In this document: one piece after another, positions 1-64,000 of the stretch
Numbering within the stretch: the stretch's first letter is position 1
Layout of the letters: every line of letters begins with the position of its first letter
Assembly: GCA_021413735.1 (NCBI GenBank)
Contig: JAIOPV010000276.1
Span: forward strand, 5,873 to 69,872
From: Planctomycetota bacterium
Lineage (GTDB): Bacteria > Planctomycetota > Planctomycetia > Gemmatales > Gemmataceae
DNA: 64,000 bases
Direction: 5' to 3'
Notes under the pieces: generated by a model
What the model was told of the DNA's origin: nothing
What the model saw: the letters and a program-made list of their open reading frames with translations, nothing else
The model's database searches: none
Position numbers and translations under genes: made by a program

Positions 1-1455
1 GTAGTGCGGCGTGTTCCACGGCTTGCCCATCGGCTTGAAGGTGCCGGCCGTGGTGCCGAGCATGAGCACGTCGTGGAGGCTCCCGTGCTGGCTGTCCGGC
101 TCGTGGAAGAAGCGCCCCTCGGCACAGTACCCGTGGCTCTCCTGATCGGTCTTCGCCACGGGGCAGCGGGCCAGCACCTTCCCGGTGGTCACGTCGAGCA
201 TCGTCGTGCCGGACTTGTTGCGGACGAACGCCCGGTCCTGCCACACGGGCAGCCCGCTCATCCCGCCGCTGACGAACCCGACCTTCTCCTCGCCGGTGTG
301 TTCCCAGATCTTCTTCGCGCCGGTCGGCGTGATCTTCCACCCGCTCGCGCGGCCAACGAGTTTCTCGTCGCCCGGTCCCATCGGTTCCTTGCCGGCGTTC
401 AGCAGCAGCACATCGCCCGCGACGGATAGGGTCGATTCCTGCCGGCCCGTGTCGAGCGACCACCGCTCCTTGCCGGTGAGCGGTTCAAGGCACCGCACCT
501 TGCCCTCGATGTTCCCGCACAGGACGGACTCGCCGCTCTGGTGAACCCAGCGCGTCGGCGTGGCATGGTGGGCGAGGCACTTCGGCACCTGCCACAGCTT
601 CTTGCCGGTCGCACCGTCGAACCCGATCAGCCCGCCCTGGAAGTCAGGGCAGACGAATACGCCCGCCGCGAACGTCGAGCCGTTGCAGTGCCCGCGGTTG
701 ATGCCGCCGAACGCCTTCTTCTCGGCGAGGCCCTTCTTCTTGGTCTCTTCGAGCTTCGTATGCTCCGCGCCGAGGTCGCTCTCCCACTCCATCTTCCCGG
801 TCGCGGCATCGAGGCAGTAGACGCGGCAGGTCGAGCCGATGACGTACACTCGGCCACCGAACACGGCCCCGGTGTGGTTGGTGATGATGCTCTTGTGGTC
901 GGTCCAGTTGAGACCCTTGTCCTTGAACACCTGCTTCCAGAGCGTCTTGCCGGTGGCGGCATCGACGCACAACACCACGTCGTCGGCCGACACCTTCCAG
1001 TAGTCCGGGGTCCAGGTGCCCGGCCCCTTGTCGCGCTTCTGCTGCTCGCCGGCGTCGATCACCTCGCCGGACGGCACGAAGTAGCTGGCGAACACGCGGC
1101 CATCGGCGACGAGCAGGCTCGCGGCCCCGCCGCCGGGGAGCGGGATGCCGCCACCGGAGATGACCTCGCCGCCGCCCGCAAGCGGGATGTTGATGGGCTT
1201 AAAGTCCTTGAGCGAGATGCCGTGCCACCCGTGCCCACCGTACCGCGGGCTCTGGGCGGCGCCGGGCGGGGTGGGTTCGGCGCTCTTCCACACCAGCCGC
1301 GCGTCCTTCAGGTCATCGACCAGTGTAAGGCTGCAGTCGGTGGCGCTGAAGTTGCCGTTCGGCCCGTGGTAGCACGGCCACGACGGGGCGTCCGCCGCGC
1401 GAGCGACGAGGGGAGTCAGGGCGGCGAGGCCGAGGGCCACGAGGAAGCGTTGCAT
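1..1455 (-). CDS. Secreted PQQ-like beta-propeller protein (PQQ_2/BamB-like), 3' end runs off the window
   Basis: Hand translation from ATG at 1455: MQRFLVALGLAALTPLVARAADAPSWPCYHGPNGN..., with propeller motifs VLCVDAATGKTLW, VYCLDAATGKMEW and LIGFDGATGKKLW. The frame is open to position 1, so it is absent from the ORF track. Confidence 0.85.
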   Translation of the reverse strand, partial: MQRFLVALGLAALTPLVARAADAPSWPCYHGPNGNFSATDCSLTLVDDLKDARLVWKSAEPTPPGAAQSPRYGGHGWHGISLKDFKPINIPLAGGGEVISGGGIPLPGGGAASLLVADGRVFASYFVPSGEVIDAGEQQKRDKGPGTWTPDYWKVSADDVVLCVDAATGKTLWKQVFKDKGLNWTDHKSIITNHTGAVFGGRVYVIGSTCRVYCLDAATGKMEWESDLGAEHTKLEETKKKGLAEKKAFGGINRGHCNGSTFAAGVFVCPDFQGGLIGFDGATGKKLWQVPKCLAHHATPTRWVHQSGESVLCGNIEGKVRCLEPLTGKERWSLDTGRQESTLSVAGDVLLLNAGKEPMGPGDEKLVGRASGWKITPTGAKKIWEHTGEEKVGFVSGGMSGLPVWQDRAFVRNKSGTTMLDVTTGKVLARCPVAKTDQESHGYCAEGRFFHEPDSQHGSLHDVLMLGTTAGTFKPMGKPWNTPHY

Positions 1456-1483
1456 GGCGGTTGTCGGGGTTGGCGGGCGCGGT

Positions 1484-1693
1484 TCACTTCTTGTAATCAG
1501 CTTCGTTCTTCTCGGCAGCCCAGAACAAAGCCCGCGCGAGCATGACACGGACGCTCTCGTGGCCCTCGATGTACCGCGGGTCGTGGACCGTGTAGACCGT
1601 CCGCTGCTTGGTCTGCTTGTTGACCCGGCACCACGTCTGCGGCCCCTTCGAGTCCTTCATCTCGATCAGCACGGTCACGTCGTCGGCCTGCAT
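1484..1693 (-). pseudogene. Headless C-terminal fragment of a ThuA-like gene
   Basis: The 69 aa (...GPQTWCRVNKQTKQRTVYTVHD...ESVRVMLARALFWAAEKNEADYKK) align by eye with only the last ~70 aa of the ThuA-like protein at 8252-9007 (...GEPQVWTRTHPTSKQRIVYAIHD...EPVRTLVARAIFWAANADENAYRKK). Confidence 0.75.
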
Positions 1694-1705
1694 GGTCCCG
1701 CCGCG

Positions 1706-2153: not shown

Positions 2154-3407
2154 TCACGACAAGCCAGGCAGCCCCGCCTCAAAGCGTTTGAACTTGCCGC
2201 CGCAAATGTCGGCTCGTTGTAGCATCGTGGTGAAAACCTGGCCGAACAGTGTGCGGTCGTCGGGGAACATCAGATGCTGGCCGTGGCGAATGCCAAAGTT
2301 ACCGCCGCCAGCGAACAGCAGGGGGATCTTGCGGACTCCGTGCGAACCGGTGCCGTTGCTGAAGTCCTCGCCGTTGTTCATGCCGCTGCCAAAGACGATC
2401 ATCGTGTTGTCCAGGAGGTTGCCCCCCGCATCGGGCGTATTTTTCATTCGCTTCAGGAACTCGGCGAAAAAACTCACCTGCTGGCGATCGGACTCGGCGA
2501 CTTTCGCGAGTTTGGAGGGGTCGCCCCCGTGGTGGGTGTCGCCATGCACGCGGGTGATTTCCCGTGAGGACAAGTAGGTGACGACCCGGGTCGAATCAGT
2601 CTTCAGCGCGAGATGGATCAGTTCGTACATGGCCGGAATTCGTCCGCGATTGTTGTCCAGGAAGGCGGCGTCCGCCTCAGGCCGGGGATTGCGGAGCCAG
2701 GCTTCCTCCCGAACGATGGCTTGTTCGACCTCGCGGATGCTTTCGAGGTATTCGGTCAAGCGCCGCGAATCGACCGCTCCGAGCGACCGTCGGATGGCTG
2801 CCACCTCCCCCTTCAGGTCGTCGAGAATGCTTCGACGGCTCGCCAAACGCCGTTCCGCCTCTGCCATTGATGCTGCGTCCGGCGTCACGAACAAGCGGTT
2901 GAAAATCTGACGGGGATCGGCCTGGGCGGGCAGCGGCGTTCCCCGTTCGTTGAACGAGAGCGTATGCGTCAACCGTTTCGCCCCCGTCCCGCTCTGCACG
3001 CTGAGTTGTAGCGAAGGGAATCGCACGTCCCGGCCCAGATGAGGTGCCGCCAACTGATCGAGCGAGATCGAGTTGTTCCCCGCGGGGTTGTCGGCGGTCA
3101 ACCAAGTGTCTGCGGCGGAGTGGCCGTTGAAGTCGTATTCGTGACGTAGCCCGGAGACGATCGACAACTGGTCGCGATGCGCCTCCAGCGCCTGGAGGGT
3201 CGGCGACAACTTGTACTTTTTGCCGGTTTCTCGGGGATACCACTCTTCATTCACCACACCAGACGCGAAGTAAATGAAGACCATCCGCGGCTTGGCCTTG
3301 GTCACCTCGGCCTTGGGAGAACCGGAGACCATCACCTCCAGCATCGGCAAGGCGAGCGTCGCGCAGCCCCCCTTGATCACCTGTCGTCGGGACATGATTG
3401 AAATCAT
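2154..3407 (-). CDS. DUF1552 (HXXSHH-family) protein, module 1
   Basis: 417 aa. N-terminal SRRQVIKGG..LALPMLE, R...DSTRVVT, His motif HGDTHH, and GNLLDNTMIVFGSGM. Confidence 0.92.
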   Translation of the reverse strand: MISIMSRRQVIKGGCATLALPMLEVMVSGSPKAEVTKAKPRMVFIYFASGVVNEEWYPRETGKKYKLSPTLQALEAHRDQLSIVSGLRHEYDFNGHSAADTWLTADNPAGNNSISLDQLAAPHLGRDVRFPSLQLSVQSGTGAKRLTHTLSFNERGTPLPAQADPRQIFNRLFVTPDAASMAEAERRLASRRSILDDLKGEVAAIRRSLGAVDSRRLTEYLESIREVEQAIVREEAWLRNPRPEADAAFLDNNRGRIPAMYELIHLALKTDSTRVVTYLSSREITRVHGDTHHGGDPSKLAKVAESDRQQVSFFAEFLKRMKNTPDAGGNLLDNTMIVFGSGMNNGEDFSNGTGSHGVRKIPLLFAGGGNFGIRHGQHLMFPDDRTLFGQVFTTMLQRADICGGKFKRFEAGLPGLS

Positions 3408-3435: not shown

Positions 3436-6033
3436 TCAATGGCTGCGAAATTCATCGCTAAGAACCAGTTCCTCAATCAGCGTCCCCAGGCGATAGTCTT
3501 TATCTTTCAGTAGGCCACGAAGCCGGGCGACAGTCCGGCGATCTTGGAATCGCAGAGATCGGCCCAGGGAGTAGACCATCATTTTCTCGACGAAACACTG
3601 GATGAACGGATCGGGGGCGTCCCTCAAGGCACGCCGCAGTTGGTCGGGGCCATCGATCTCGCGTCCATCGGGCATGGTGGCCCGGGCGTCGATCTTCGGA
3701 CTGTCGAACCGTTTCTTCAGGCCATCGGCCTCGCGGTCGCGCCAGAGGCCTACGGCGTTGTAACGCTCCAGGGCGAATCCGATCGGATCGATCTTGCTGT
3801 GACAGCGGGCGCAGCTCTTGACGTCGCGGTGGATTTCGAGCTGTCGACGCTGCGTCACTTCGTTCAGGCCGGGAACCTTGTTGGCGAGTTCCCCGGCGTT
3901 GTCGGGCGGAGGCGGAGGCGGATCACCGAGGATGTTCTCCAAGATGAACGCGCCTCGCGCAACGGGCGAGGTCCGTGTGCTGTTGGAGGTGATTTTGAGG
4001 ATGCTGGCATGACCTAAGACGCCGCCCCGATGGTACTCCGGTGCCAGCTTAACCCGACGAAACTGATCGCCCAAAACCCCGGCGATTTTGTAGTGTTCCG
4101 CGAGCGTCTCGTTGAGCATCGTCCAGTCCGAATCGAGGAAGTTCAAGATGCTCAGATCCCGGCGGAGCACTTCGTGGAAGAACTCAACCGTCTCGAGCCC
4201 CATGCTGCGTTCGAGTTGCTTGCTGTACTTGTACAATTCGGGGTCGGGTTCCGCGGCACCAATCCGCTTCAGGTGCAGCCATTGCGAGGCGAAGTTCTCT
4301 GCCAACGCATAGGCACGGCGATCCTGGAGCATTCGCCGAACTTGTTTCCGTAACCCTTCCGGCTTCCCGAGTTCGCCGGATTCGGCGGCGCGCAGCAACT
4401 CGTCGTCGGGGCAACTGCTCCAAAGAAAGTAGGAGAGCCGTGAGGCGAGTCCCTGTGGCGAAAGTCGCTGATTGGGCTGAGCCGAAACGCGATCGCTTCC
4501 GACGAAGAGAAAATCGGGCGAAACGAAAACCGCCACCAGCGTTGCCCGCAGTGCTTCGCCGAAGGGAGCCCCCCGGTCGCGCTCGGCTTTGAACCGCTTC
4601 ACGTATCGTTCGACCGTCTCCGGCGAAACCGATCGGCGAAACGCTCGCGGCAGCATACGCTGGAGCGTCTCGCGGACCACGGCCATCTCCTCGCGTTCTC
4701 TTGGCAAAACGCCGGGGATGCGCAGCGTCGCATCTTGCACCGGCGGCAGAGGCCCCTCGACCTCGATGTAATCGATCTCGATCAGGTGGTGATAGAAATC
4801 CAACGCAGCCTGAAGTTGAGGTTCGCGATTCTTGTCCGTGTTCGGGTAAGGGCCTTTCTCCCGAAACGTCGTGCGAAACTGAATATCGAGCCGCAACGAA
4901 GAGTTGTCGCCAACGCGGACTTCTTCCAGCTCGCGAAACAGCATCAGTTCATGGGTCTTCCACTCGTTGGGCGCGAGTTCCACGTTCATGGCGACGGCGT
5001 CCACGGGCCGGTCGTCCGGGTGGCCCGTAAGCACCTGCATCAAGACCGGGTGGTTGAGCCCAGCCGGCTTGACGATCGGGCGACAACGAATGCGATACCG
5101 ATAGAGCCCCGGCTGACGCACCAGACAGTCCGCGCCGAAGGTGAACGTATCCCAGACCACCGCTCCGTTTTCGTTCAACAGCGGAAAGCCCAACCGACGA
5201 GTTCCGGTGAACGGATTCGCCCTCATGCGTTCGGCCTGGAAATCTTTCGCGAACGAACCGTCGCCATCCGATTTTCCGAGATTGATGAAGTAGACACCGG
5301 GCATCGGCGGCGCATCGTCCTTAAAGCGATCGCGGCAGTGAAGGTTGTCCTCAATTTTCCGGGCGGCGTTGCTTCCGGGAGCCGCGTAATCGATTCGCCA
5401 GTGGTGCGTGGGACGAGCCCAGTCCATGGCCAACGTCAACTGGCGTTCCGCCAATTGCAGGTACAACTCCAAATGCAACTTCGACAGCGACAGCCCGCCC
5501 CCGACCGTCTCGAATCCGTCGATCGCCGTCTCCTCGGGCAAGAGATGATGGAACGGCCGAAATCCGTGCGTCCCGCGCGGCATCCCCAAAACATCGTTGA
5601 GGGTGTTCTCGAATTCGACGCGATTCAGACGCCTGCTGAACGGTTTTGCGTCGCGATGCCCCTCCGCGTCCACGAACTGCCAAAGCTGCTTCTCCATCGC
5701 TTCGGCCACGAGCGTTCGCTCTTTGGGCGAGACGTCCTCGTTCGGCGGCGGAGGCATCTTCCCTTTGGCGACCTGGTGAAATGCCTTCTCGTAAGTCCGA
5801 AATCGTTCCCCGTTGAGAGTCGTTCCAGGCTTGAGCAATGGCTCAATGCTGAAGCCGCCTTTCGATGAACCCTTGGCGTGACAGCCGGAACAGTGATCCT
5901 GAAAGAACCTCGCTACTTTCTCCTGAATCTTGACCTCTTCGGCTTTATCCCCAGCCTGCGCGGACGCACAAAACGCGCCGCAAAAGAGGATCGCCGCAGC
6001 CCTCCATCGATGGATCGTTCCCGCGAAAGTCAT
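3436..6033 (-). CDS. Planctomycete diheme cytochrome c, PSCyt1-DUF1587-DUF1595-DUF1592-DUF1588-DUF1585 architecture, module 1
   Basis: 865 aa. Signal peptide, CSGCH, RRLNRVEF, LASRLSYFLWSSCPD, RGGVLGHAS, SPVARG and CARCH. Confidence 0.93.
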   Translation of the reverse strand: MTFAGTIHRWRAAAILFCGAFCASAQAGDKAEEVKIQEKVARFFQDHCSGCHAKGSSKGGFSIEPLLKPGTTLNGERFRTYEKAFHQVAKGKMPPPPNEDVSPKERTLVAEAMEKQLWQFVDAEGHRDAKPFSRRLNRVEFENTLNDVLGMPRGTHGFRPFHHLLPEETAIDGFETVGGGLSLSKLHLELYLQLAERQLTLAMDWARPTHHWRIDYAAPGSNAARKIEDNLHCRDRFKDDAPPMPGVYFINLGKSDGDGSFAKDFQAERMRANPFTGTRRLGFPLLNENGAVVWDTFTFGADCLVRQPGLYRYRIRCRPIVKPAGLNHPVLMQVLTGHPDDRPVDAVAMNVELAPNEWKTHELMLFRELEEVRVGDNSSLRLDIQFRTTFREKGPYPNTDKNREPQLQAALDFYHHLIEIDYIEVEGPLPPVQDATLRIPGVLPREREEMAVVRETLQRMLPRAFRRSVSPETVERYVKRFKAERDRGAPFGEALRATLVAVFVSPDFLFVGSDRVSAQPNQRLSPQGLASRLSYFLWSSCPDDELLRAAESGELGKPEGLRKQVRRMLQDRRAYALAENFASQWLHLKRIGAAEPDPELYKYSKQLERSMGLETVEFFHEVLRRDLSILNFLDSDWTMLNETLAEHYKIAGVLGDQFRRVKLAPEYHRGGVLGHASILKITSNSTRTSPVARGAFILENILGDPPPPPPDNAGELANKVPGLNEVTQRRQLEIHRDVKSCARCHSKIDPIGFALERYNAVGLWRDREADGLKKRFDSPKIDARATMPDGREIDGPDQLRRALRDAPDPFIQCFVEKMMVYSLGRSLRFQDRRTVARLRGLLKDKDYRLGTLIEELVLSDEFRSH

Positions 6034-6144: not shown

Positions 6145-6793
6145 CTACTTTTTCTTTAACTTCCCAGCCATGCGAACGGGATCGAGGCTCGGCTGCCAGA
6201 GATACTGTTCGTCTTGCGTGATGCGGTCCGGGCCCAAGAAGGGGCGTATCGGTTGCCGAGTCTCGGCGAGTTTCGCCACCGGATCGAGAATCGTTCCCGA
6301 TACCAGATCGACGCGCACGCCTCGGGCGGGCTTATCCTTGCTGGTCTTTGGAGCTTGGAACTCACTTGCGGTAGATCACCAGACGATGGGCCACCGCGGG
6401 ATGGTCGTCCCAGTCCTTATTCGGGCCATCGGTGAACTTGCCGCCGTTGGAGAGCTTGTCGTCGACGTTCGTCTTGCTAGGCGAGTAGGAAAACGGGTTC
6501 CAGGCCGCGAACGTTTCGCCGTCCGGAGCGATGAAGAGATGAACGAAGGGGCCGACCGGCGGGAGCCCGACGAAATCGCCCGTGCGCGATTGGCCAGTTT
6601 TGGTGTCCTTCCAGTGAAACTTCCATTGGCCGGCCTCGGGATCTTTCGGGTTGGCACCGACCAACTCGGCTGTCACCACGAAGCGGCCGTCCTGCGTCTG
6701 ACAGCCATCGACGTACTCCTGTCGCGCTCGCCCGGCATGGAGAGTAGACGCAGCCAGCAGCAAACAAACTATTGCAATAGATGATTTCATCAT
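6145..6793 (-). pseudogene. Secreted hypothetical protein, apparently broken by an internal deletion or frameshift
   Basis: MMKSSIAIVCLLLAASTLHA...HRLVIYRK stops at 6362. A second frame (6366-6145) continues with protein-like SEFQAPKTSKDKPARGVRVDLVSGTILDP...GKLKKK* and has no start codon. The ATG at 6793 overlaps the upstream TGA. Confidence 0.6.
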
Positions 6794-8034
6794 TTCTCTC
6801 CGATGCACCAGAGTTTCGATTGGCCCAACAGCAGTAGACGGCCGTCCGCGACCGCGGGGGAGGCGTGCCCAGGATCGCCGAGATCGTTGTTGGCGAGCAC
6901 CATGAACTCCGCCCCCGCTTGCACGACGACGCTCTTTCCCGCCGAAGCCAAATAGATGCGTCCCTTCGCGTCGGCGACGGGGCTGGCCCACGCGGAACTC
7001 GCGCCGACACGCTCCTGATACACCTTCTCGCCGGTCTTCAAGCTTCGACAAATGAGGATGCCGTTGTTGTGCAATCGGTAGATGTGTTCGCCGACGATCA
7101 CGGGCGAGCCCAAGCTTTCCGGTACGTTCGCGGTCCATTTGCTGGGTACGGGCGAGGCAGCGTCGCCGGTGGGAATGGAGACCAAGGTGGCGAGCCCGCC
7201 TCGGCCGCTGTCGAAGTAGACGCGATCGCCGGCGAGGACGGGGGTCGCGGTCGAGGCGATCCCCGCAGCCCACCAGAGTTTCTTGCCCGTCAGCGGATCA
7301 AAGGCTTGCAGGGCGTTGTTCGCCGGCTCCTTACTGGAAGCAGCGATCAGCATCTGCGTGCCGATCTTCCCAGACGCCAACACGGGCGTCGAATGCCCGT
7401 AGCCCATGTCTTTGAGACGCAGATCATAGACGATGTCGCCCGTCTGTTTTTTGAACGCGATCAGGCGAGGCTCTTTGTTGAGGCCACAAAAGACAATCAC
7501 CAGATCCTGATACAAGATCGGGCTGGTCGCCATTTCGAAGTTGTAATGGAACGGCTTGAGCTCGTAACGCCATTTCAACTTGCCCGCCGTATCGATCGCG
7601 ACCAGCACCGACGAGCCAAACAGAGCGTAAACGCGTTCGCCGTCGGTGCAAGGCGTGGAGTTGGCATACCCCAAGCCGCGATCGCCTTTCAAAGCCCCGC
7701 GTTTGGCCGGGCCCGGCTCCACCGCGGTCTTCCACAGCCGTTTGCCATCACTGAGCTGAAAACACTGGACGTGATGTAAGGGTTGTTCACCATCGGGATT
7801 CGCGGCGACATTGGCGATATAGACGCGGTCCTTCCACACGATGGGGCTCGAAGTTCCTTGTCCCTCGGCATCGACGGACCAGCGAATGTTCTTCCCGGAC
7901 TTCGCGTTCCATTCGAGCGGTAGGTTGTCGCGCGTGGTGACGCCGCAACCACCCGGGCCACGGAACTGAGGCCAATCCTCGGCGCTGGAGACGCTGGGTA
8001 GCAATGCAAATACAAGCGGCATGAAATAACGCAT
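6790..8034 (-). CDS. Secreted PQQ-like beta-propeller protein
   Basis: Probable start MRYFMPLV at 8034. Motifs EDWPQFRGP, SSPIVWKDRVY, STPCTDGERVYALFGS, ASPVADAKGRIY and HASPAVADGRL. Confidence 0.9.
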   Translation of the reverse strand: MRYFMPLVFALLPSVSSAEDWPQFRGPGGCGVTTRDNLPLEWNAKSGKNIRWSVDAEGQGTSSPIVWKDRVYIANVAANPDGEQPLHHVQCFQLSDGKRLWKTAVEPGPAKRGALKGDRGLGYANSTPCTDGERVYALFGSSVLVAIDTAGKLKWRYELKPFHYNFEMATSPILYQDLVIVFCGLNKEPRLIAFKKQTGDIVYDLRLKDMGYGHSTPVLASGKIGTQMLIAASSKEPANNALQAFDPLTGKKLWWAAGIASTATPVLAGDRVYFDSGRGGLATLVSIPTGDAASPVPSKWTANVPESLGSPVIVGEHIYRLHNNGILICRSLKTGEKVYQERVGASSAWASPVADAKGRIYLASAGKSVVVQAGAEFMVLANNDLGDPGHASPAVADGRLLLLGQSKLWCIGEK

Positions 8035-8160
8035 GGTTGATAGTAGCCCCTTGATCGGCATCGCGTTGTGTCTCAGGAAGCTCATGGGCCGACCTTCGCA
8101 GTTTTCGTGTTCATGGGTCAACACATCCTTGGTCCACTCTTGGTCGGTGAGATCCGTCAC
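8035..8160 (-). pseudogene. Possible degenerate DUF1501 3' tail
   Basis: The in-frame upstream extension SVTDL...HENCEGRPMSFLRHNAMPIKGLL resembles DUF1501 C-termini in this window (NSDGRPVPLTDYGTEPVAAVL, QQRPVPILPSGQSIRELL). Similarity judged by eye only. Confidence 0.4.
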
Positions 8161-8188
8161 GCTCGAACGTGGGGATCGGGTCCGACGG

Positions 8189-8247
8189 GTCCGACACCGA
8201 ACCCCGTCCACTGAAGTGAGCAGACGGCGTGCAGAGAAAACACACAC
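8189..8247. repeat. Dispersed ~60-bp intergenic repeat, copy 1
   Basis: gtccgacaccgaaccccgtccactgaagtgagcagacggcgtgcagagaaaacacacac matches 30844-30904 apart from 2 substitutions and 2 extra A in that copy. Confidence 0.95.
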
Positions 8248-8251
8248 AAGA

Positions 8252-9007: not shown

Positions 9008-9027
9008 GACAGTCTCCTTGCAGGTGT

Positions 9028-55600: not shown

Positions 55601-56331
55601 CGCCGGGGAAGGACGGCTCGATCTTTCGACACCTGCCGCCGTACTCACTTGAGAATCTCGGTCCCAAGCATCCCGACCGCATCGGCATCCTGATGCAGCC
55701 GAGTTGGCAGGTGGCGTGGTCCACGAACTTCCACAACGACATCGTCCGTCGCGGCCGGTGGGTGCGTGAGCACCTGCTGGGCGGGCGCGTTCCGGACCTG
55801 CCGATCAACGCGGCCGCGATGATCCCCGACGACCCGCACCGCACCTTGCGGCAGCGGCAGATGGTCACCCGCGAGGCCCAGTGCTGGAAGTGCCACTACC
55901 GCATGGACGAACTCGGGCTGCCGTTCGAGGACGTGACCCACTACGGCTTCCCCCGCCGCGCGGAGGAGGTGCTGGACCTCGAAGCGGTGGCGCAGAGCAA
56001 GGACAAGAAGGCGAAAATCTACCGCGATGCCCCGCTCGACGCGACCGGGTTCATCGCGTTCAGCGGCGACCCGAAGCTCGACGGCCCCGTCAAGGACGCC
56101 CCCGAAATGCTCCGCCGGCTTGCGGAATCGGACCGGGTGCGGCAGATCTTCATCCGCCACGCCTTCCGCTTCTTCCTCGGTCGCAACGAGACTCCCGGAG
56201 ACGCGGTCTCGCTGCAAGAAGCGGAGAAGGCCTACCTCGACAGCGGCGGCAGCTTCAAGGCGTTGCTCGTGTCGCTGCTTTCGTCGGAATCATTCCTGTA
56301 TCGAACGGTCCCCGCCAGGGAGAAGAAATGA
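52636..56331 (+). CDS. Fusion of a leucine-rich repeat array with a PSCyt1/DUF1592/DUF1588 cytochrome c, module 6
   Basis: 1231 aa. Signal peptide, about 500 aa of ~22-residue repeats LxLNGLTxLSDxAAxALAxHxG, then CASCH, WFFREYFDY, RRGRWVREHLLGG and CWKCH. Confidence 0.88.
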   Translation: MRQAIYGVLCLCLFHSVTGRAEELSAERAKQLLQDKSGRLILNHLTVLSPDAAKDLARHEGWLSLNGLRSLPNESAEVLALHKGQLHLDGLTALSPEAARSLARHYGELSLNGLTSLSDEAGVALAKHTGGRLYLKAVKSLSPDVAKALAQRKGGGPSNQVRLDGLESLSVEAAAALAEMHGHNWDGRLPAMKTIPEDVARALAKRPGGLSLEGLTSLSDEAAKALGGKLGGNLPGLTSLTVESAKAIAGPVPGQFHRTLNLDGLTALPDDIALAIGGKDSRGNLYLNGLTSLTPAAAKAICQREGDLYLDGLTTIPDDTLKAITEHKSPGYARPIVFLKGLTKLSDDGAVILAAWPKWCGELPALSMLSEKTAVALASSRNWDGKLPAVKQLSAEVAKAHAKRRGNLSLDGLAELSDAAANALAEHRDGTLSLNGLKNLSDKAAAALARHDGRLSLNGLTTLSDGAAGALAQHPGDWLILDGLTTLTDSAAKALAQHRGVVSLNGLTALAPETLKTLKTNTRIGLPESFRTAVVHQPTKADAKMVRAFLETHCASCHDAQSKSGDFTLAPLDQDDVAGRVAYASILERLRAGDMPPPSKKERPDPAEAAGVAKWIEAKLDAPLRGKPAYHPVREKPIDGNRLPNAILFGGPRGPSVPPPPRLWRLSPSAYTKWLGEFNAHGLQQPFGVIQDAGFRDFASLYAPDEGATSLLLSNAELLVAAQVRAHQLVNTNDNPVAAKETLWPNDARIKTATDAERELLKKGVRVRQGNGVFAPLMHPHVRASKDELEKAIRQQYQTAIARQPSDKELASVLALYDDIARDGDFPLAGRTILMAPMLTPEAILRFEVGTGAEMRPDVRMLSPRETAFALSLALSSKRDPGLLTAAALGKLTTRAEVAESVRRILDDPKVDKSQVLWFFREYFDYYRAPEVFKDPLPDYLQRRGIGYSPQGYVADTDFAILNILAHDKDVLKELLTTTASFRSHELFTPGKDGSIFRHLPPYSLENLGPKHPDRIGILMQPSWQVAWSTNFHNDIVRRGRWVREHLLGGRVPDLPINAAAMIPDDPHRTLRQRQMVTREAQCWKCHYRMDELGLPFEDVTHYGFPRRAEEVLDLEAVAQSKDKKAKIYRDAPLDATGFIAFSGDPKLDGPVKDAPEMLRRLAESDRVRQIFIRHAFRFFLGRNETPGDAVSLQEAEKAYLDSGGSFKALLVSLLSSESFLYRTVPAREKK

Positions 56332-57704
56332 CCACTCCACAACGCACGTTCACACCCGACCAATTGAACCGCCGGACGGCTCTCAAGGGCGTCACGCTCG
56401 GGGCGGGAGCCGTCGTGCTGCAACCGTTTCTGAATCGGCTCGCGGCCGAGGCACGCGGCGAAACGCCGCCTCCGCGGATCATCTTCGTGATGCAGGGGAA
56501 CGGCCTTTGGCCGCATCACATTCAGCCCAAGGGCATCGACAAGCACAAGGCGATCGGCCTTGTCGATCTTCCGTTGGCCGATCTGGAATTGCCAGACCCC
56601 ATCTCGCCGCTCGAACCGTTCAAGAAGCGGCTGGGGATTATCCAGAACCTCTCGCACAAGATCTCCGGCGGTGGCGACCACGGCAAGCACTACGGTGCCC
56701 TCGGCTGCTTCAACTGGCGTCGCGGGCCGCTCGCCCAAACAGTTGACCACGCGCTGGCCTCGGCTCAACCGAGTCCGATTCCGGTCGTCGGTCTGGCGGT
56801 TCAACCGTCGGTGGAAGCAGTTATCGTCAACACCGTCTCGGCCATTGCTCCCAAACGGCCGCAACCGATGGTGTGCCAGCCGGACATCGCCTTTCAGTCG
56901 CTCTTCGGCAGTGTCGCGGAAGGAAACGCCGGCAAGGCGTTCAACGCCCGGAACAAACTGCTGGACTGGGCTCGCTCCGACGTCAAGCGGGTCCAGAGTG
57001 AACTGCCGTCGATGGACCGGGAGAAGCTCGACATCTACCTCGACACATTCGAGCAGATGCGGACCCGTCAGGATCAGATCGCCACGATGAAGGACCGCCT
57101 CAAGGCGAACGTGCCGGTGATCGACAAGTTCAACAGCAAGATCGTGACCGAGCGGTTCGAGGCGCAGTGTGCGATCGCCGCCGCCGCGATCGCCTCTGGG
57201 CTCACGAACGTGGTAACTCTCGACGCCTCACCAACCGCGTATCACACGTGGAAGGAACTCGGCGTCACGGTCGATGGCCACTCCATCGGCCACATGACGG
57301 GGCACCCGGACCGTGACAAGCTCTGCACGCCGATTCGGAAGTTCCACGCCGAGCGGGTCGCGGATCTCGCGCGACGGCTCGACGCAGTGAAAGAAGGCAA
57401 CGGCACCGTTCTGGACAACACACTGATCGTCTGGATGAGCGACTCGGGCGAGGAACACCACGGCTTCTGTTCCGAATGGCCAATGGTGTTACTCGGCAAC
57501 CTCGGTGGTCGGCTCAAGACCGCGGGGCGGTTCCTGCAATTCCCCAAATACCAGAGCGCCGGCCACCGCACGATCGCGAACTTCTATCTCGCCCTGCTGC
57601 ACGCGGTCGGCGACAAACGGAAGTCGTTCGGTGAGATCGATCCGGCTCTCGAGGGCTTGCGCGACGTCAACCAGTCCGGCCCGCTGACGGAAATTCTGGC
57701 GTGA
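56328..57704 (+). CDS. DUF1552 protein, module 6
   Basis: Start MTTPQRTF with ATGA overlap. NRRTALKG, HSIGH and TVLDNTLIVWMSDSGEEHH. Confidence 0.9.
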   Translation: MTTPQRTFTPDQLNRRTALKGVTLGAGAVVLQPFLNRLAAEARGETPPPRIIFVMQGNGLWPHHIQPKGIDKHKAIGLVDLPLADLELPDPISPLEPFKKRLGIIQNLSHKISGGGDHGKHYGALGCFNWRRGPLAQTVDHALASAQPSPIPVVGLAVQPSVEAVIVNTVSAIAPKRPQPMVCQPDIAFQSLFGSVAEGNAGKAFNARNKLLDWARSDVKRVQSELPSMDREKLDIYLDTFEQMRTRQDQIATMKDRLKANVPVIDKFNSKIVTERFEAQCAIAAAAIASGLTNVVTLDASPTAYHTWKELGVTVDGHSIGHMTGHPDRDKLCTPIRKFHAERVADLARRLDAVKEGNGTVLDNTLIVWMSDSGEEHHGFCSEWPMVLLGNLGGRLKTAGRFLQFPKYQSAGHRTIANFYLALLHAVGDKRKSFGEIDPALEGLRDVNQSGPLTEILA

Positions 57705-57741
57705 CCCACGTTGGTACGTTTCCTTCTGTCAGGAACAGTTC

Positions 57742-60700
57742 ATGCGCACTGCTGCCATCTTGCTGATCACGTTGACCGCGAGCCACCTCTAAGCCGCACC
57801 GCTTCGGGCCGCACCGGAACGCGCCAGTTCCGTCACGAACAGCATCGGTATGAAACTCGTTTACATCCCGCCGGGGACGTTCACAATGGGCTCCCCGGAA
57901 AGCGAGCCGGGCCGGGAAGCACAAGAAGTGCAACACGAGGTCGATCTCACGAAGGGGTTTTACCTGGGACGATATGAAGTCACGGTCGGCCAGTTCAAGG
58001 AGTTTGTGAAGGAGACGAAGTACGAGACCGACGGTGAGCGCGATGGCAAGGGCGCTTTTGGCGTCAACGAGGCCGGCAAGATCGAGGAGATGCACGCCAA
58101 GTTCACCTGGAAAAGTCCGGGGTTCGAGCAGACCGACGATCACCCCGTGGTCGATGTGTCCTGGAATGATGCCAGGGCGTACTGCCAGTGGCTGAGCAAG
58201 AACGAGAAGAAGACGTATCGCCTGCCGACCGAGGCGGAGTGGGAGTACGCATGTCGCGCCGGCACCAAGACAGCCTATGTGCACGGCGATGATCCCGAAG
58301 GTTTGGCGACCATCGGCAACGGGGCCGACGCAACCGCCCGAGCCAGGTATCCGGGGTGGAGTATCGGTATCAAGGCGAAGGATGGCCACGTCTTCACGGC
58401 ACCCGTGGGCCAGTTCAAAGCCAACGCGTTCGGCCTTCACGATGTGCATGGAAACGTCTGGGAGTGGTGCGAAGACTGGTATGAGCCGAACAGTTACCCC
58501 AAAGAAAAGCAGGTCGATCCGACTGGGCCGGCGACGGGCAAAGCCAAGGTACAACGCGGTGGCGGTTGGTCGAGCGATGCGAAGCGTCTGCGTTCTGCGG
58601 CTCGTGTTGGCCGGGATGCTTCCGCCTACCGCGGCTGCTACCTTGGATTCCGTGTCGTTCTCGTTGCAGCGAATGAAAAGCCGACCAAAGAACCCGAAGC
58701 GGTCAAGAAGCCACCCGCGGGGCTGCGGGTGATGTTCAACGGCAACAGTTGGTTCAACTTCGTGCCGGGTGGCGTCGCCGATCAGGTCAGAGCAGCCGGG
58801 ATCGAGGGGCACAAGGAAGTCAAGGCTGCGAAACCGAACGACTTCAGCGTTATCGAAGCAGGTGAAGTCGATGTCTACGCACATGGCGTTCATTGGTGGA
58901 TGGAGGTGCCATGGGGAAAGGATGGCGTCTTTGCAGAGAAGATCGTCGAAATGGGGCGGAAGGTGAATCCGAACTTCCGGGCATACTACCATGCTGCCTG
59001 GTTGGTCGGCGATGGACGAGCCAAGGACATCAAGACCACGGCCGACTACGACGAATCCAAACTCGCGGATGTTCAGACGGCACTCGACAAGACACGCAAG
59101 GGTGTCGAGACCACCGTGGACAAACTGAACGAGAAGTTTGGCAAGCGGGTGGTGTTCCTGGTCCCGGTGGGTGATGCCACGGTGAAACTCCGGGGAATGA
59201 TCCTGGAAGGCAAGTACCCCGGTGTGAAGAAGCAGTCAGAACTGTGGACGGATGCGATGCCGCACGCCGGGCCGCATGTCATGGCCCTCAGCGGCTACTG
59301 CCACTTCGCGGCGATCTACCGCACCTCGCCGGTCGGCCTGAAGATCGATCGATTCAAGGAACTGACCGACGAGCAGCACGCGATCCTCCAAAAGATCGCA
59401 TGGGAAACGGTGTCGAAATATCCGTATGCCGGCGTCGCTGAGGCCCAAGATCCGAAATCGGAGCCTGCCAAGAAGCTCCCGGCTGGGCTGCACGTGGCGG
59501 GGGCTGGCAACAGTTGGTATTCGGAGGGCTCCGAGCCCCTGTGCAAGGCGGCGGGCATCGTCGGGCACAAGAAAATCACCGGCATCAATGGCAACCGCAC
59601 CGAGGACCTGACACCCTTGCTCGAAAAGGGCGAGTTCGACGCCTTCGTGTATGGGCGAACCGACATCGGCATGGAACAGAAGCTCCTGTCGGCCCTTCTG
59701 GAACTTGGCCCCAAGCACAATCCCAACTTCCGCGGCATTTATGTCCAGATGCCGTGGCTGGTGCATGACGGACGACAGGGCGTCAAGTCAGCAGAGGAAT
59801 ACGAAAAGACGGACCTGGCGGAAATGCAGGTGAAACTGGAGAAATCCCGCAAGCAACAGGAGGTCTGGGCCGACGAGGTCAACGCCAAGGCCAGCAAGCG
59901 AGTCGTCTTCCTTGTGCCGCTCGGCGACGGGATGCTGGAGGTGCGGAAGATGATCGCGGCCGGGAAGTTCCCCGGCGAGACGAAGCAATCCGGTGGGAAT
60001 TCGGTACTGCGGGGTGACATCATGCCGCACCAGGGACTTCTTGGAATGCGTCTGGGAAATTACATGCACTTTGCAGCTCTGTATCGGATGTCACCGGAAG
60101 GCCTCAAGTTCCCAGGCAAGGACGGTGATGGCCTGACCGACGAGCAGCGGGCGATACTCCAGAAGCTCGCGTGGGACATGGTCTCGAAGTACCCGTACGC
60201 AGGTGTTGCGAAGTTCGACGCACCCAAGCCTCCGAAGGATGGCGAGAAGCCGGTCCCGAAATCAGGCGATGACGCGACTGCCTTGCCGGACGCGTTGAAG
60301 GGGTGGAAGGCGACCACGGATCTACCCGCGGAGGCGGTGGTCACCGATTACAACGCCTACATCCAGACGTTACCCAAGGCCGAACGGCCCGGTGTTTCTG
60401 ACGTGAAATACTACGTCGATGACACGGGCCGAAATGCCGTGGCAGTCCTCGTCAATGTGGGCGGCGAACGGTGGACTCATCTCCTCGTTTACGACAAGCA
60501 GAACAAGCAAACCAGCGTGACGAAATTCGTTGCCAATAAGCCCACCGAGGAGCCGAAGGCCGCACCCACCCAAAAGCCGCCGGAGGGGTTGCGTGTCGCG
60601 TACACCCTCATGTCGAACGGCACCGAGATGGACGCGATCGTGAAAGCAGCCAACATCGTCGGACACAAGGCGACGGACGCACCATACTTCGGCACATGGC

Positions 60701-61395
60701 ATGGTTTCGTGAAAGGTGGCAAGGAAGGAATTCCGGAGAAGGCGCAGAAGCAGATTGCCAGCGGGGGCATCGACGCCCTCACGGTCGCGACGTGGACGTG
60801 GGCTCCGAACGAGGAAACTTGGCACAAGCACGTCGGTCTCGACTCGGCCCTCGCCGGTGTTGCGGAACTGGGCCTCGAAAAGAACCCGAACTTTCGCCTC
60901 TGCTGGCGAGCCTTCCTCAAACCCGCCACGGTCAAGAAGGGGAACGAGGTCGTTCCGGACTTCGTGCAAACCCGGAAAACGCTCGAGAAAGAAACGAAGG
61001 ATCTGGAAACCCATGTCGATCTGGTCAACAAGAAGCACGGCAGGCGGGTCGTTCTGATCGTGCCGCATGCCCAGGCCGGGCTGGCGCTGGTCGATGTGGT
61101 CGCCGCGGGCAAGTTCCCCGGCATCACGGACCCGGCGGAGTTGTGGATGAAAGAGGAGGCGTTCAACATGAACGTCCACCGACACCTACGGGCGCTGGCG
61201 GCCTACTGCGACTTCGCTGTGATCTACGGTGTCTCGCCGGAGGGGTTGAAACCGTCGTTCAAGGGCATCAGCTACAAGTCCAAGGGCGGGGCCGAACACT
61301 CCATGGAGGGCATCACCGACGAGCAGAATGGCATCCTCCAGAAGCTCGCATGGGAAACGGTCTCGAAATACCCCTACACCGGAGTCGCCCGATAG
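57742..61395 (+). CDS. FGE-sulfatase (SUMF1-like) domain plus three tandem SGNH-like domains; signal peptide interrupted by a premature TAA
   Basis: ATG 57742 gives MRTAAILLITLTASHL* (TAA 57790-92), then continues in frame AAPLRAAPE...NSIGMKL into the 1181-aa ORF from 57850. FGE motifs RLPTEAEWEYACRAG, GNVWEWCEDWY and GFRVV. Three repeats end in L(T)DEQ..ILQK.AW..VSKYPY.GVA. Confidence 0.82.
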
Positions 61396-61552: not shown

Positions 61553-63187
61553 ATGAACGCGTTTCGACTCGCACTATTCGTTCTGATCGTGTCCGTGTTC
61601 CCTCGCCCAGTATGGGCAGACGACGAGCGGTTGCGCGACACCATTGACCGCGAGATCAAGGCGGGTTGGGCGAAGGAAAAGATCACCGCACCGATTCAAT
61701 CGTCGGACAACGTGTTCCTGCGGCGTGTGCACCTCGACCTCGTCGGCATGATCCCCACATACGAAGAGACAACGGCCTTCCTCAAAGACACCGACCCGAA
61801 GAAACGCGAAAAGCTCATCGATAAGTTGCTGGCCGATCCGCGGTTCGCCCGACAGCAGTCCCACGTGTGGGACATGGCCATGCTGGGCCGCAACGCCAAG
61901 CTCGTGGAAGGGACGGTCGGCCACCGGAACCGCGAACGGTTTCGCCAGTGGCTCGCCAAGCAATTCGAGGCGAACGAGCCTTGGGACCGCGTAGCCGCGA
62001 AAATCCTCCGGGCCGAGGAAGATGGTTCGCAACTCTTTTTCGCGGTGAACAACGGCACGGACGAGATGGTTACCGCGGTTTCGCGCGTCTTCCTCGCGAC
62101 ACAAATTCAGTGCGCCAAGTGCCACGATCACCCGTACGAGCCGTGGACGCAAAAGGACTACCACGGCATGGCCGGTTTCTTCGTCCGCACCATGGCCGTG
62201 GAAGTTCCGGGTAAGCCCGAGATCACGAATCAGAAGGGCAAGCAGTACCTCGTTGGCGAGAAGGCCGTGGGCGAAGCACTGTTCGCCACCGAAGAACTCG
62301 ATCCGAAGACCAAGAAGAAGCAATCCATCCCCATCAAGCCGAAGTTCCTCAGTGGCGCGGTGCTGACCGAGCCAGAAGCACCGAAGGACTACGTCGAACC
62401 GAAGCTGAAACCGGGCGAGGTGCCGCCGAAGCCGGCGTTCTCCCGTCGCGAGAAGTTCAGCGAGTGGATGACGGCCAAGGACAACCCGTACTTCGCGAGG
62501 GCGGCGGTCAATCGCGTCTGGGCGCAGTTCATGGGGCGTGGCTTCGTTCACCCGGTCGATGACTTCAACTCGCAGAACACGCCGAGCCACCCTGAACTGC
62601 TGAAGGCCATCGAGAAAGAGTTCGTTGCCCACAAGTTCGATCTGAAGTGGCTTGTCCGGGAGATTGTCAGCAGCGAGGCGTATCAGGCGACCGATCTCGG
62701 CCCGGTCACCGACGCGATGCCGAAGCACTACGAGCGAGCCCGCATTCGCCCGCTGAGCGTCGAGGAGCTCACGGCATCGCTGCATCTGGCAACGGGTCTC
62801 GGCCTCGAATCGGCTCTGAAAGCCGAGCCGAGCAGCCAGTTGCTTCAGTACCTGGGCCAGCCCACTGACGGCCAGGGGCGGTTTCAGGGGAGTCTGTCGG
62901 AACACCTGTTCCTTCATAACGGCGACCAGTTCCGGGGTCTATGCCGCCCCAACAAGGGCAACCTGCCGGAGAAGTTGCTGACCGGTTCCGAGGACTGGAA
63001 CGCGAAGGTCGAGCGCATGTTCCTGTCGGTGTTGAGCCGGCCGCCCACCAGCGAGGAGAAGGAGCGATTCGTCAAATACCTGAGCGCGGACCCGAAGGAC
63101 GCGAAGGACGCGAAACTGGCGGCACAGCGCATGGAAGACGTGATGTGGGTGCTGGTCTCGTGTTCCGAGTTTCGATTCAACCGGTAG
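61553..63187 (+). CDS. DUF1549-DUF1553 protein (no N-terminal PSCyt1)
   Basis: 544 aa. VFLRRVHLDLVGMIPT, CAKCHDHP, NRVWAQFMGRG and SHPELL. Confidence 0.93.
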   Translation: MNAFRLALFVLIVSVFPRPVWADDERLRDTIDREIKAGWAKEKITAPIQSSDNVFLRRVHLDLVGMIPTYEETTAFLKDTDPKKREKLIDKLLADPRFARQQSHVWDMAMLGRNAKLVEGTVGHRNRERFRQWLAKQFEANEPWDRVAAKILRAEEDGSQLFFAVNNGTDEMVTAVSRVFLATQIQCAKCHDHPYEPWTQKDYHGMAGFFVRTMAVEVPGKPEITNQKGKQYLVGEKAVGEALFATEELDPKTKKKQSIPIKPKFLSGAVLTEPEAPKDYVEPKLKPGEVPPKPAFSRREKFSEWMTAKDNPYFARAAVNRVWAQFMGRGFVHPVDDFNSQNTPSHPELLKAIEKEFVAHKFDLKWLVREIVSSEAYQATDLGPVTDAMPKHYERARIRPLSVEELTASLHLATGLGLESALKAEPSSQLLQYLGQPTDGQGRFQGSLSEHLFLHNGDQFRGLCRPNKGNLPEKLLTGSEDWNAKVERMFLSVLSRPPTSEEKERFVKYLSADPKDAKDAKLAAQRMEDVMWVLVSCSEFRFNR

Positions 63188-63205
63188 TCAAGCCAGGGGA
63201 AGCAG

Positions 63206-64000
63206 ATGAAGAGGAACATCCAGGCGGGCACTTGCAACTCAGGGCACCACCTCAGCCGTCGCTCGCTGATGAAGGGGCTGCTCACCACGGCGGGCGGCAT
63301 GGCCGTCGCGAACTGGGGTGTGTTGACACATTCGCAGACGATCGCCGCGGAGACGAAACGATCGGGGAAGCGCTGCATCATGCTCTACATGGGCGGCGGC
63401 GCGAGCCAGATCGACACCTTCGACATGAAGCCGGGGCGGCCGACCGGTGGCGAATTCCGCCCGGTTCAGACCAAGGTCACCGGCATCCAGGTTTGCGAAT
63501 ACCTGCCGAACATTGCACGCCATGCCGAGAAACTCGGGATCATTCGCAGCATGCGAACGAAGACACCCGATCACGGCCCCGGCGGCTATTACATGCACAC
63601 GGGCTATCATCCGGGCGAGCGTTTTCCGCACCCGGAAGCCGGTGCGATGATCGCCAAGTATTGCGAAAACCCGGAAAGCGACCTGCCGAGTTTCGTCAAG
63701 ATCGGTGGGCAAAGCGGCATTTATGGCTCGGGTTATCTTGGACCGCAGTACGAACCGTTCGTGGTGGAAGAGGATGGCCGGGTTCCCAACTTTGTCAATC
63801 CGAGTGTCGGGACAGAAATTCAGGAACGTCGCGGCGAACTGCTGAACTTCATGGAGCAGCGTTTCGCCGAGCAGCGTAAAGGTGAGCCGTTCGCCGCTCA
63901 TCACACGGCGGAATTGCGCACGATTCGCCTGATGCGAGCCCGCCAAGCGTTTAACGTCAGTGCGGAGTGGGAGAGAGCCAAGGAGCGGTATGGGGACAAT
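63206..64000 (+). CDS. DUF1501 protein, 3' end runs off the window
   Basis: Hand translation MKRNIQAGTCNSGHHLSRRSLMKG...YMGGGASQIDTFDMKPGRPTGGEF...; the frame is open to the window end. Confidence 0.9.
   Translation, partial: MKRNIQAGTCNSGHHLSRRSLMKGLLTTAGGMAVANWGVLTHSQTIAAETKRSGKRCIMLYMGGGASQIDTFDMKPGRPTGGEFRPVQTKVTGIQVCEYLPNIARHAEKLGIIRSMRTKTPDHGPGGYYMHTGYHPGERFPHPEAGAMIAKYCENPESDLPSFVKIGGQSGIYGSGYLGPQYEPFVVEEDGRVPNFVNPSVGTEIQERRGELLNFMEQRFAEQRKGEPFAAHHTAELRTIRLMRARQAFNVSAEWERAKERYGDN

Follow-up and report, generated by a model that had tools for sequence, protein, structure and literature searches.

The 64,000-nt stretch of DNA analysed here, referred to as the window, makes up most of the 72-kb contig C206 (C206:5873-69872 of 72106) in a metagenome-assembled genome (MAG) bin of a freshwater planctomycete of the family Gemmataceae. 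It holds a known kind of gene module, in which a cytochrome-type gene is paired with a gene for an exported partner protein, in an unusually dense and plastic locus. Six type I pairs (DUF1592-type cytochrome with DUF1552) and four type II pairs (DUF1549-DUF1553 protein with DUF1501) are present, together with two unpaired DUF1501 genes. The best overall explanation, put forward with moderate confidence, is that the window consists of divergent arrays of exported two-gene modules, which turn over in a cassette-like manner and serve as periplasmic ligand units. Relatives' loci are denoted below by L numbers, five related Gemmataceae MAGs by G001-G005 and contigs by C numbers.

Long open reading frames (ORFs) tiling the window were scanned against Pfam and NCBIfam, giving a set of 38 genes. 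The counts of six and four pairs, already proposed by an earlier reading of the sequence alone (the sequence-only reading), were confirmed with Pfam. The modules are the following, with the evidence in brackets.

Cytochrome 3436-6033 and DUF1552 2154-3407, minus strand: P1, type I (Pfam, motifs)
Cytochrome 10335-12707 and DUF1552 9028-10521, minus strand: P2, type I (Pfam)
Cytochrome 16088-18676 and DUF1552 14719-16137, minus strand: P3, type I (Pfam, tree)
Cytochrome 21019-23619 and DUF1552 19690-21006, minus strand: P4, type I (Pfam)
Cytochrome 25207-27561 and DUF1552 23830-25167, minus strand: P5, type I (Pfam, structure models)
Cytochrome with repeat-rich N-terminus 52636-56331 and DUF1552 ~56.3-57704, plus strand: P6, type I (Pfam)
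PSCyt1-DUF1549-DUF1553 gene 28899-30959 and DUF1501 with twin-arginine (Tat) signal 27591-28895, minus strand: PA, type II (Pfam, motifs)
DUF1501 35459-36805, WD40 gene 36841-37881 and DUF1549/DUF1553 ~37.9-39515, plus strand: PB, type II variant (Pfam)
PSCyt1-DUF1549-DUF1553 ORF 43521-45806 (its true start lies later) and DUF1501 45764-47125, plus strand: PC, type II (Pfam)
DUF1549/DUF1553 gene without PSCyt1 61553-63187 and DUF1501 from 63206 to beyond the window, plus strand: PD, type II (Pfam)
49657-51039 and 51169-52515, plus strand: unpaired DUF1501 genes (Pfam)

The domain string PSD3-PSD5-PSD4-PSCyt3-PSD2 is complete in five of the six type I cytochromes, which also have an N-terminal cytochrome c-like domain; in the sixth, P6, Pfam recognises PSD4, PSCyt3 and PSD2 besides a long N-terminal repeat region. 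A DUF1552 gene follows directly downstream on the same strand in all six cases, and in the whole bin the cytochrome comes first in 20 of 21 type I pairs. The P1 cytochrome, a predicted di-haem protein of the DUF1592 type, and its Tat-signal partner have a low GC content at third codon positions (GC3), 0.72-0.77. The true start of the P2 DUF1552 gene is probably near 10338, overlapping the stop codon of the cytochrome, and that of the cytochrome-type gene of PA is probably near 30821. Among the type II pairs, PA, PC and PD are adjacent and in the canonical order (a protein with PSCyt2/DUF1549 and PSD1/DUF1553, then DUF1501). PB is reversed, with DUF1501 first, the WD40 gene in between and a DUF1549/DUF1553 protein that lacks PSCyt1.

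The density of these modules is far above that of the rest of the bin. All ORFs of the 9.8-Mb bin were searched with hidden Markov models (HMMs) built from the window's own paralogues, which returned 28 DUF1552, 28 DUF1592-type, 160 DUF1501 and 98 DUF1549 genes. They include 87 adjacent same-strand pairs, located on many different contigs. The 10 pairs of the window thus compare with a mean of 0.57 per 64 kb, an enrichment of about 17-fold that is approximate because C206 may not belong to the bin. The window accounts for about 21% of the type I pairs in 0.65% of the DNA, and the next densest clusters are on C240 (six pairs in 41 kb), C150 (five), C14 and C186 (four each). This comparison with the remaining genome had been named beforehand as a check on the idea of a special locus, and its outcome agrees with that idea. 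The same reading had described the families as greatly expanded and unexplained, which the number of pairs in the bin and the published accounts of the pairings bear out.

The domains PSCyt3 and PSD (DUF1587-DUF1595-DUF1592-DUF1588-DUF1585) were reportedly defined by Studholme et al. in 2004. As for the pairings, DUF1501 proteins adjoin PSCyt1/PSCyt2/PSD1 proteins and carry twin-arginine signals, and a role in electron transport has been proposed for them, with mainly vertical inheritance and duplication in PVC bacteria (Kamneva 2012, PMC3542564). PSCyt2 and PSCyt3 genes each adjoin one of two uncharacterised gene families; some of the proteins carry carbohydrate-binding modules, their function is stated to be unknown, and PSCyt genes show an inverse correlation with glycoside hydrolases along with enrichment in oxic water (He 2017, PMC5615132). 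No newer literature that assigns a function to the pairs was found. The type I pairs of the window match the PSCyt3/PSD and DUF1552 pair of Planctomycetes and Verrucomicrobia in domain string, gene order, CxxCH motifs, Tat partner and occasional carbohydrate-binding inserts. There is no difference from the pair of He 2017 at the level of the pair, and six such pairs in one locus are new here. The type II pairs likewise share domains, adjacency, Tat signal and the many diverged copies per genome with the module of Kamneva 2012. Unlike in that account, the modules here differ between near relatives and are of mosaic composition, pair B is reversed with a WD40 insertion, and two DUF1501 genes are unpaired.

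The plasticity of the locus is evident from its relatives, which were found by a scan of species-representative genomes with the hydrolase adjacent to the central spacer of the window as anchor; gene order was read from DNA and protein maps. The anchor is 86-94% identical in lake Gemmataceae MAGs, and every related contig found holds a different set of modules. Downstream of the hydrolase the orders are the following.

Window: A-5-4-T-3-u-T-2
L026: A-4
L006/L018: A-(another DUF1501)-T-3
L001: (decayed piece of A)-3-T-2-(different DUF1549)

In the right arm, L002 is without the second propeller and pair B, and its junction falls at repeat D11 (34005-34107 / 39599-39701). In G005:C319, PQQ_b is joined straight to PQQ_a and pair 1 is missing; P1 is in fact absent from all five related MAGs, and P2 is present in G005:C319 at 96% nucleotide identity. 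P4 is found at 96-97% in G002 and G005 and is absent from G001, G003 and G004, all of which are incomplete MAGs. Whole-genome searches of the five MAGs, themselves incomplete, found no orthologue of the P5 partner, the best match being 46% identical. G003:C32 is a stack of 52 kb in its own right, in which the counterparts of P2 and T067_a lie some 33 kb apart with different modules in the interval, and other genes stand in the place of PC in G003:C76. The breakpoints between relatives fall at gene ends, and repeats D5 and D11 coincide with their junctions. Whole modules have thus been gained, lost and relocated between close relatives, and gene order, for which fixity in relatives had been considered a possible objection, differs in L026, L006/L018, L001, G005 and G003. 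GC3 forms a mosaic of 0.72-0.93 across the window, and the same mosaic recurs in G005:C319; since it occurs within single contigs, modules of different compositional history lie side by side.

Module P5 resembles a cassette. It is bracketed by a direct repeat (D5) of 172 nt at 87% identity, with a 101-nt core that has one mismatch, and a six-frame HMM scan identified the downstream copy as a relic of the 3' end of a DUF1501 gene.

23644-23815, minus strand: DUF1501 3'-end relic, direct repeat (D5) of 27592-27763

The structure of L026 is the one expected if P5 were absent and the two repeats merged, which fits both a Campbell-type circle and a deletion between the repeats. P5 occurs at 85-95% nucleotide identity in five other contexts, thus in six neighbourhoods including that of the window, and the following copies illustrate how these differ.

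L038: 95% nucleotide identity, between two other DUF1552 genes
L077: 94.6%, following a P3-like cytochrome
L030-37: 85%, tail-to-tail with a pair-A-like pair
L039-40: 85%, beside a Bax-inhibitor-family gene and then another type II pair

The homology spans about 23810-27460, and its two limits are identical for L038 and L077, namely about 20 nt past the DUF1552 stop codon and 34 codons into the cytochrome gene, so that the window copy has a different signal peptide. The bin holds no native copy of an L077/L038-type locus. In three independent metagenomes, P5 is covered two- to five-fold less deeply than the sequence on either side. The P5 cytochrome has a signal-peptide region (27461-27561) that is wholly unlike its equivalent in the copies of 95% identity from L038 and L077 and contains a short tandem repeat, CGTGATCCT, in about 2.5 copies, which encodes VILVILVILV. 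Headless gene tails had been considered as a recurrent feature of junctions, an idea dropped after a six-frame HMM scan of short segments gave one relic only (23655-23810).

The cytochrome and its partner diverge as a unit. The maximum-likelihood (ML) tree of the 28 cytochromes agrees in topology with that of the 28 DUF1552 proteins, which indicates that the two genes duplicate and diverge together. P3 and P4 are sisters in both trees (37% and 46% identity), P2 and P5 group with pairs on C75 and C214, P1 groups with a pair on C24, and P6 belongs to a separate clade with pairs on C240, C14 and C23. The window modules are therefore old paralogues, 30-50% identical, and the stack is not a recent amplification. 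Profile comparison with hhalign of bin-wide alignments aligned DUF1552 with DUF1501 at 98.3% probability over 364 columns, and the DUF1592-type with the DUF1549-type proteins at 96.5% in the N-terminal cytochrome domain and 95.6% over 254 core columns. Since both gene families are homologous at the profile level, the two pair types are distant paralogues of one two-gene system.

Within the cytochromes, the modules differ mainly in one central slot, as a comparison of their sequences shows. Any two window cytochromes share 30-45% identity in the C-terminal scaffold (E 1e-53 to 1e-110), and similarity in the slot is confined to P3 and P4, apart from P2 and P5, which match marginally. The AlphaFold model of the P5 cytochrome (pLDDT 86, pTM 0.82) combines a helical scaffold with a sole all-beta region at residues ~214-346, which falls within this slot. 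Almost all matches of the model in the Protein Data Bank (PDB) are carbohydrate-binding modules (CBM36, CBM6 and CBM35), with CBM36 the best fit (target TM 0.71-0.73), and the slot of P5 is accordingly modelled as a CBM36/CBM6-like beta-sandwich. No PDB match aligns more than ~220 of the 784 residues, so the helical scaffold is without a solved relative. Homologues about 40% identical to the P5 cytochrome have a Pfam CBM60 domain in exactly the same slot. The N-terminal half of the P6 protein (52822-54178) holds eleven diverged repeat copies at multiples of ~69-72 nt, which Pfam does not recognise and which may form a leucine-rich-repeat-like solenoid fused to the haem scaffold.

The export signals of the two proteins differ. 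The cytochromes have Sec-type signals and one or two CxxCH motifs per protein, two being found in all type I window cytochromes and in 27 of 28 DUF1592-type proteins of the bin; they are predicted to be Sec-exported c-type haem proteins, with covalent haem expected from the CxxCH motifs. Twin-arginine signals (an RR motif followed by a hydrophobic stretch) are present on all DUF1552 and complete DUF1501 copies of the window, and across the bin on 25 of 28 DUF1552 and 143 of 153 DUF1501 proteins. Together, the Tat and Sec signals point to the periplasm. The proposal of a periplasmic or surface location is thus favoured in its first part, and nothing indicates a surface location.

The partner of the cytochrome is predicted to have an alkaline-phosphatase/sulfatase fold. 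For the AlphaFold model of the P5 DUF1552 protein (pLDDT 80), Foldseek gave 15 matches in the PDB at E <= 0.001, and every one of them is a sulfatase, a phosphonate monoester hydrolase or an alkaline phosphatase, with probability ~1.0, TM ~0.4 and identity ~10%. A search of PDB sequences returned nothing useful for DUF1552, and DUF1501 gives weak sequence matches to Sulfatase and Phosphodiest (Pfam, PDB).

Taken together, these features may be accommodated in the following scheme. Each module would probably work as a unit in the periplasm: a specific glycan, or some other organic ligand, would be bound by the variable slot and converted by the phosphatase-fold partner, with the haems connecting this step to the respiratory chain. 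Substrate handling by the modules is an inference, and periplasmic sugar processing would fit the propellers, esterase-like hydrolase, DUF1080 and ThuA-like proteins encoded beside them. Rearrangement would probably proceed via homologous or illegitimate recombination between the conserved ends of paralogous genes.

The layout of the locus is consistent throughout. Left of 32.1 kb there are 19 genes, every one on the minus strand, and right of 32.5 kb a further 19, every one on the plus strand, such that both arms read outward from a 415-bp spacer (32111-32525; minus up to 32110, plus from 32526). The left arm is the fourth longest same-strand run among 3,387 in the bin, as delimited by a crude gene caller that breaks runs artificially. 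No housekeeping gene is present among the 38 genes (Pfam/NCBIfam), and no tRNA in the window; both the outward transcription and the lack of housekeeping genes had been noted from the sequence. The outer parts of the contig (C206:1-5872 and 69873-72106, loci L067 and L068) hold further DUF1501 genes and a WD40 gene, so the stack reaches both contig ends and is longer than 72 kb. Besides the modules, the following genes are present.

1-1548 and 6790-8247, minus strand: PQQ_2 beta-propellers, accessory exported proteins of the left arm (Pfam)
8252-9031, minus strand: ThuA-like protein, accessory exported protein of the left arm (Pfam)
12671-13630 and 13603-14697, minus strand: two TIGR03067-domain genes (NCBIfam)
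30923-32110, minus strand: alpha/beta hydrolase with weak esterase-family matches, flanking the spacer (Pfam)
32526-33869 and 33939-35207, plus strand: two PQQ_2 propellers, flanking the spacer (Pfam)
39524-43917, plus strand: PQQ_2 propeller, Kelch propeller, DUF1080 (3-keto-disaccharide-hydrolase family) and small propeller, accessory exported proteins of the right arm (Pfam, N-terminal signal sequences)
47476-48018, plus strand: ECF sigma factor, TIGR02989 (NCBIfam)
47982-49589, plus strand: FecR-LamG anti-sigma-like protein (Pfam)
57850-61395, plus strand: FGE-sulfatase-domain protein (Pfam)
47476-61395, plus strand: conserved block from the ECF to the FGE gene (Pfam, NCBIfam, collinearity with G003:C76)

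Thus, of the description of the interleaved genes as only propellers, hydrolases and one ECF/FecR pair, the named families are indeed there, and two unpaired DUF1501 genes, three TIGR03067 genes (NCBIfam), the ThuA-like, Kelch, DUF1080 and FGE genes had been overlooked.

One part of the right arm departs from the cassette pattern. The order ECF-FecR-DUF1501-DUF1501-P6-FGE (47.3-61.4 kb) is collinear in G003:C76, and this block at least would behave as a fixed regulated unit; being conserved as a unit in a relative, it is not interchangeable. The suggestion that the pairs are interchangeable units is therefore upheld as regards discrete units, by the congruent trees and the variable slot, and does not extend to this block. 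It contains the one ECF/FecR regulator pair for ten modules. A 25-nt motif, GGGATTTnGTGnGnTTGGGCTAAAT, lies upstream of the ECF gene (47376-47400) and upstream of the pair-B operon (35325-35349), and these are the only two copies in the 9.8-Mb bin. The copy at the ECF gene is kept in G003 (L074 13665-13689), and the pair-B copy is missing in L004; the motif may represent a promoter read by the ECF factor, of which a second operon has acquired a copy. Short contigs of a lake metatranscriptome, at 93-100% identity, cover FecR, both unpaired DUF1501 genes, P6 and PD, and give a weak indication of expression in nature.

Several findings weigh against the explanation by cassette-like periplasmic ligand units. 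Regarding turnover, the independent contigs of the source sample break exactly at repeat D5 flanking P5, and the joins from PA through P5 to P4 were reproduced by no independent contig found. The comparison genomes are all fragmented MAGs, some of which hold two versions of the locus (L002 and L004 in one bin), and part of the variation could stem from strain mixtures or from assembler choices at repeats. Differences in gene content are moreover expected at 87-94% genome identity, and the rest of the relatives' genomes, from which a background rate of structural change would be drawn, does not align to the bin. Regarding function, Pfam finds no CBM domain in any window cytochrome and no glycoside hydrolase or polysaccharide lyase in the window, and the carbohydrate-binding fold is modelled for a single module, P5. 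For all members of these families, the attachment of haem, the metal content, catalysis and the binding of ligands are predictions. The partner, although DUF1552 has the overall fold of the S1 formylglycine sulfatases and the alkaline-phosphatase superfamily, differs from these enzymes in three respects: the formylglycine motif C/S-x-P-x-R is absent at any plausible position in all 12 window partners, neither DUF1501 nor DUF1552 conserves the canonical metal-binding Asp of the first strand, and there is a dedicated haem-protein partner. Without the motif, the partners are not canonical sulfatases, and by sequence they could be non-catalytic.

The likeness to the SusCD-based polysaccharide utilization loci (PULs) of Bacteroidota, which the sequence-only reading had drawn, fails on content and is a loose analogy. 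What is shared is a repeated two-gene signature, a variable ligand-binding part, strain-to-strain variation in content and a nearby ECF/anti-sigma pair of the PUL sensor-regulator kind (TIGR02989 and FecR-LamG, 47476-49589). The 38 window proteins have neither a TonB_dep_Rec or Plug domain, as in a SusC-like TonB-dependent transporter, nor a SusD family match, as in a SusD-like lipoprotein (Pfam). The glycoside hydrolases or polysaccharide lyases typical of a PUL are missing too, the window having only the esterase-like alpha/beta hydrolase, DUF1080 and ThuA-like proteins. In addition, the products are predicted to be periplasmic and soluble, and ten pairs are accompanied by one regulator.

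The alternative that survives best concerns the origin of the contig, and the balance tips slightly in its favour: C206 and C240 may come from a second, higher-GC Gemmataceae organism and have been mis-binned, with some joins at repeats being choices of the assembler. In that case the enrichment figure and some of the variation are overstated, yet the stack itself is still real. The GC content of C206 is 64.8% against a bin mean of 60.4% (SD 1.4), and 11 of its 23 family genes have GC3 > 0.86 compared to 4.6% elsewhere; nine of the 13 outliers elsewhere are on C240, the second densest cluster. C240 (65.2% GC) is collinear with C14 (61.9%, with GC3 differing too) at just 73-76% nucleotide identity, which is what orthologous regions from two organisms would show. 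The identity of C206 and C240 to G001-G005 is 80-96%, whereas 20-kb control regions of these MAGs barely align to the bin, which exposes the binning problem. Best-hit protein identity is ~62% for the control regions versus 84% for the island loci, and the largest contig of G005 matches the bin at 76-79% nucleotide identity in conserved genes only. C206-like and C240-like segments lie on one contig in G003, and in other samples the island is present and the bulk genome of the bin absent. The breaks of the source-sample contigs at D5 and the lack of a housekeeping anchor in the outer flanks of C206 agree with this alternative as well. Set against it are the same source-sample depth of C206 (7-10x) and a control contig (8-10x), though binning already selects for that, and a CheckM contamination of just 2.1%. 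Most adjacencies also recur in independent assemblies (L026, G005:C158, G005:C319, G003:C76), and low- and high-GC3 genes alternate within single contigs of two assemblies, so that the mosaic is real whichever organism carries it. Either the contig was mis-binned, or the region was acquired laterally from the group of G001-G005. As a separate observation, C154 and C58, the other contigs of highest GC, have partial duplicates on other contigs at 83-94% identity.

A second alternative, considered doubtful, is that the stack is a by-product of genome flux in which paralogues pile up, with the modules working singly and forming no functional library. The dispersal of the 87 pairs over many contigs of the bin would be in keeping with this, as would the descent of the window modules from at least four old lineages instead of one tailored set, the ability of relatives to manage with different subsets, and a single regulator pair with one extra copy of its upstream motif. 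It accounts less well for ten pairs in 64 kb where 0.57 are expected, for two arms that are both exceptional co-directional runs, and for neighbours that are uniformly exported accessory proteins and include no housekeeping genes. Equally dense stacks in relatives, such as that on G003:C32, moreover indicate that stacking itself is maintained.

The preferred explanation of periplasmic ligand modules with cassette-like turnover may be carried further, to a recombination-driven cassette array whose ligand-slot modules are swapped between Gemmataceae lineages without mobile-element genes; in this extended form it is unlikely. Transposase and integrase domains are absent from the window proteins (Pfam) and from the outer flanks of C206. 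Nor does the window conform to a classical genomic island or integrative element, its repeats being only internal and derived from gene ends, with a composition anomaly present.

The least probable alternative holds that the modules are periplasmic redox or hydrolytic enzymes for non-carbohydrate compounds (organophosphate, organosulfur or humic), or electron relays, with a slot that is structural or protein-binding; the inverse correlation of PSCyt genes with glycoside hydrolases and their enrichment in oxic water (He 2017, PMC5615132), the lack of carbohydrate-active enzymes (CAZymes) in the window (Pfam), the P6 protein, which has a long N-terminal repeat region besides its haem scaffold and in which no PSD3-PSD5 slot is delimited, and the partner's fold, which is that of phospho- and sulfo-transfer enzymes, speak for it, and the CBM60 of homologues, the CBM36/CBM6-like fold modelled for P5, the sugar-related neighbour families (DUF1080, ThuA-like, Kelch/NanM-like, esterase-like) and the LamG domain on the anti-sigma factor speak against it.

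Few families of unknown function are as expanded in Planctomycetes and Verrucomicrobia as those of the two pair types, of which this bin alone has about 90 pairs. The pairings themselves had been described before (Kamneva 2012, He 2017); the present analysis adds the homology of the two pair types, the comparison of scaffold and slot sequences with one modelled slot fold, and the cassette-like turnover. The question of their function is thereby narrowed to one system with one variable cytochrome slot and a sulfatase-fold partner that cannot be a canonical sulfatase. If the cassette array is real, it would be the planctomycete counterpart of a PUL, periplasmic and redox-linked, with a substrate range tuned by the exchange of modules. 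Turnover at the level of modules, if borne out, would make these loci a part of freshwater planctomycete genomes that evolves fast and defines the niche. A reasonable first target for study is the conserved block with its own ECF factor, LamG anti-sigma protein and lake-water transcripts. The FGE-domain protein at the end of this block (57850-61395, 1181 aa) has its FGE domain at residues 3-270, no obvious signal peptide, and three copies of an 83-nt repeat in its C-terminal part (59356, 60127, 61306).

The central spacer is a further site of variation.

32111-32525, no strand: divergent spacer, holding a 216-bp element at 32169-32384

The element is single-copy in the bin, for which reason its assignment to a family of miniature inverted-repeat transposable elements (MITEs) was dropped, and it is absent, with ~8 nt instead, from L001, L002 and the population of run X3. 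An insertion of 4.2 kb occupies this position in L004 and L003, and in L004 it encodes an ECF sigma factor and a G8/CEMIP beta-helix protein. Besides these two genes, one for a propeller is found in the near-spacer insertions of the relatives, and mobility genes are absent from them; the divergent spacer is an insertion hot spot. A replication origin was considered as the cause of the strand switch and rejected, the cumulative GC skew having no turn at 32 kb.

In the left arm, the gene at 13603-14697 starts with a DUF1552-type Tat signal (RRRFLRASGACLALPWL) followed by a TIGR03067 domain; it is a chimera, presumably left by rearrangement, and it is missing in L001. A 63-nt element occurs twice at 94% identity (8186-8248 and 30841-30903), just upstream of the starts of PQQ_b and the pair-A cytochrome, and has no other copy in the bin. 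The adjacent 87-nt segment (30757-30843) is skipped in some X1 and X4 contigs and is thus polymorphic even within the source sample.

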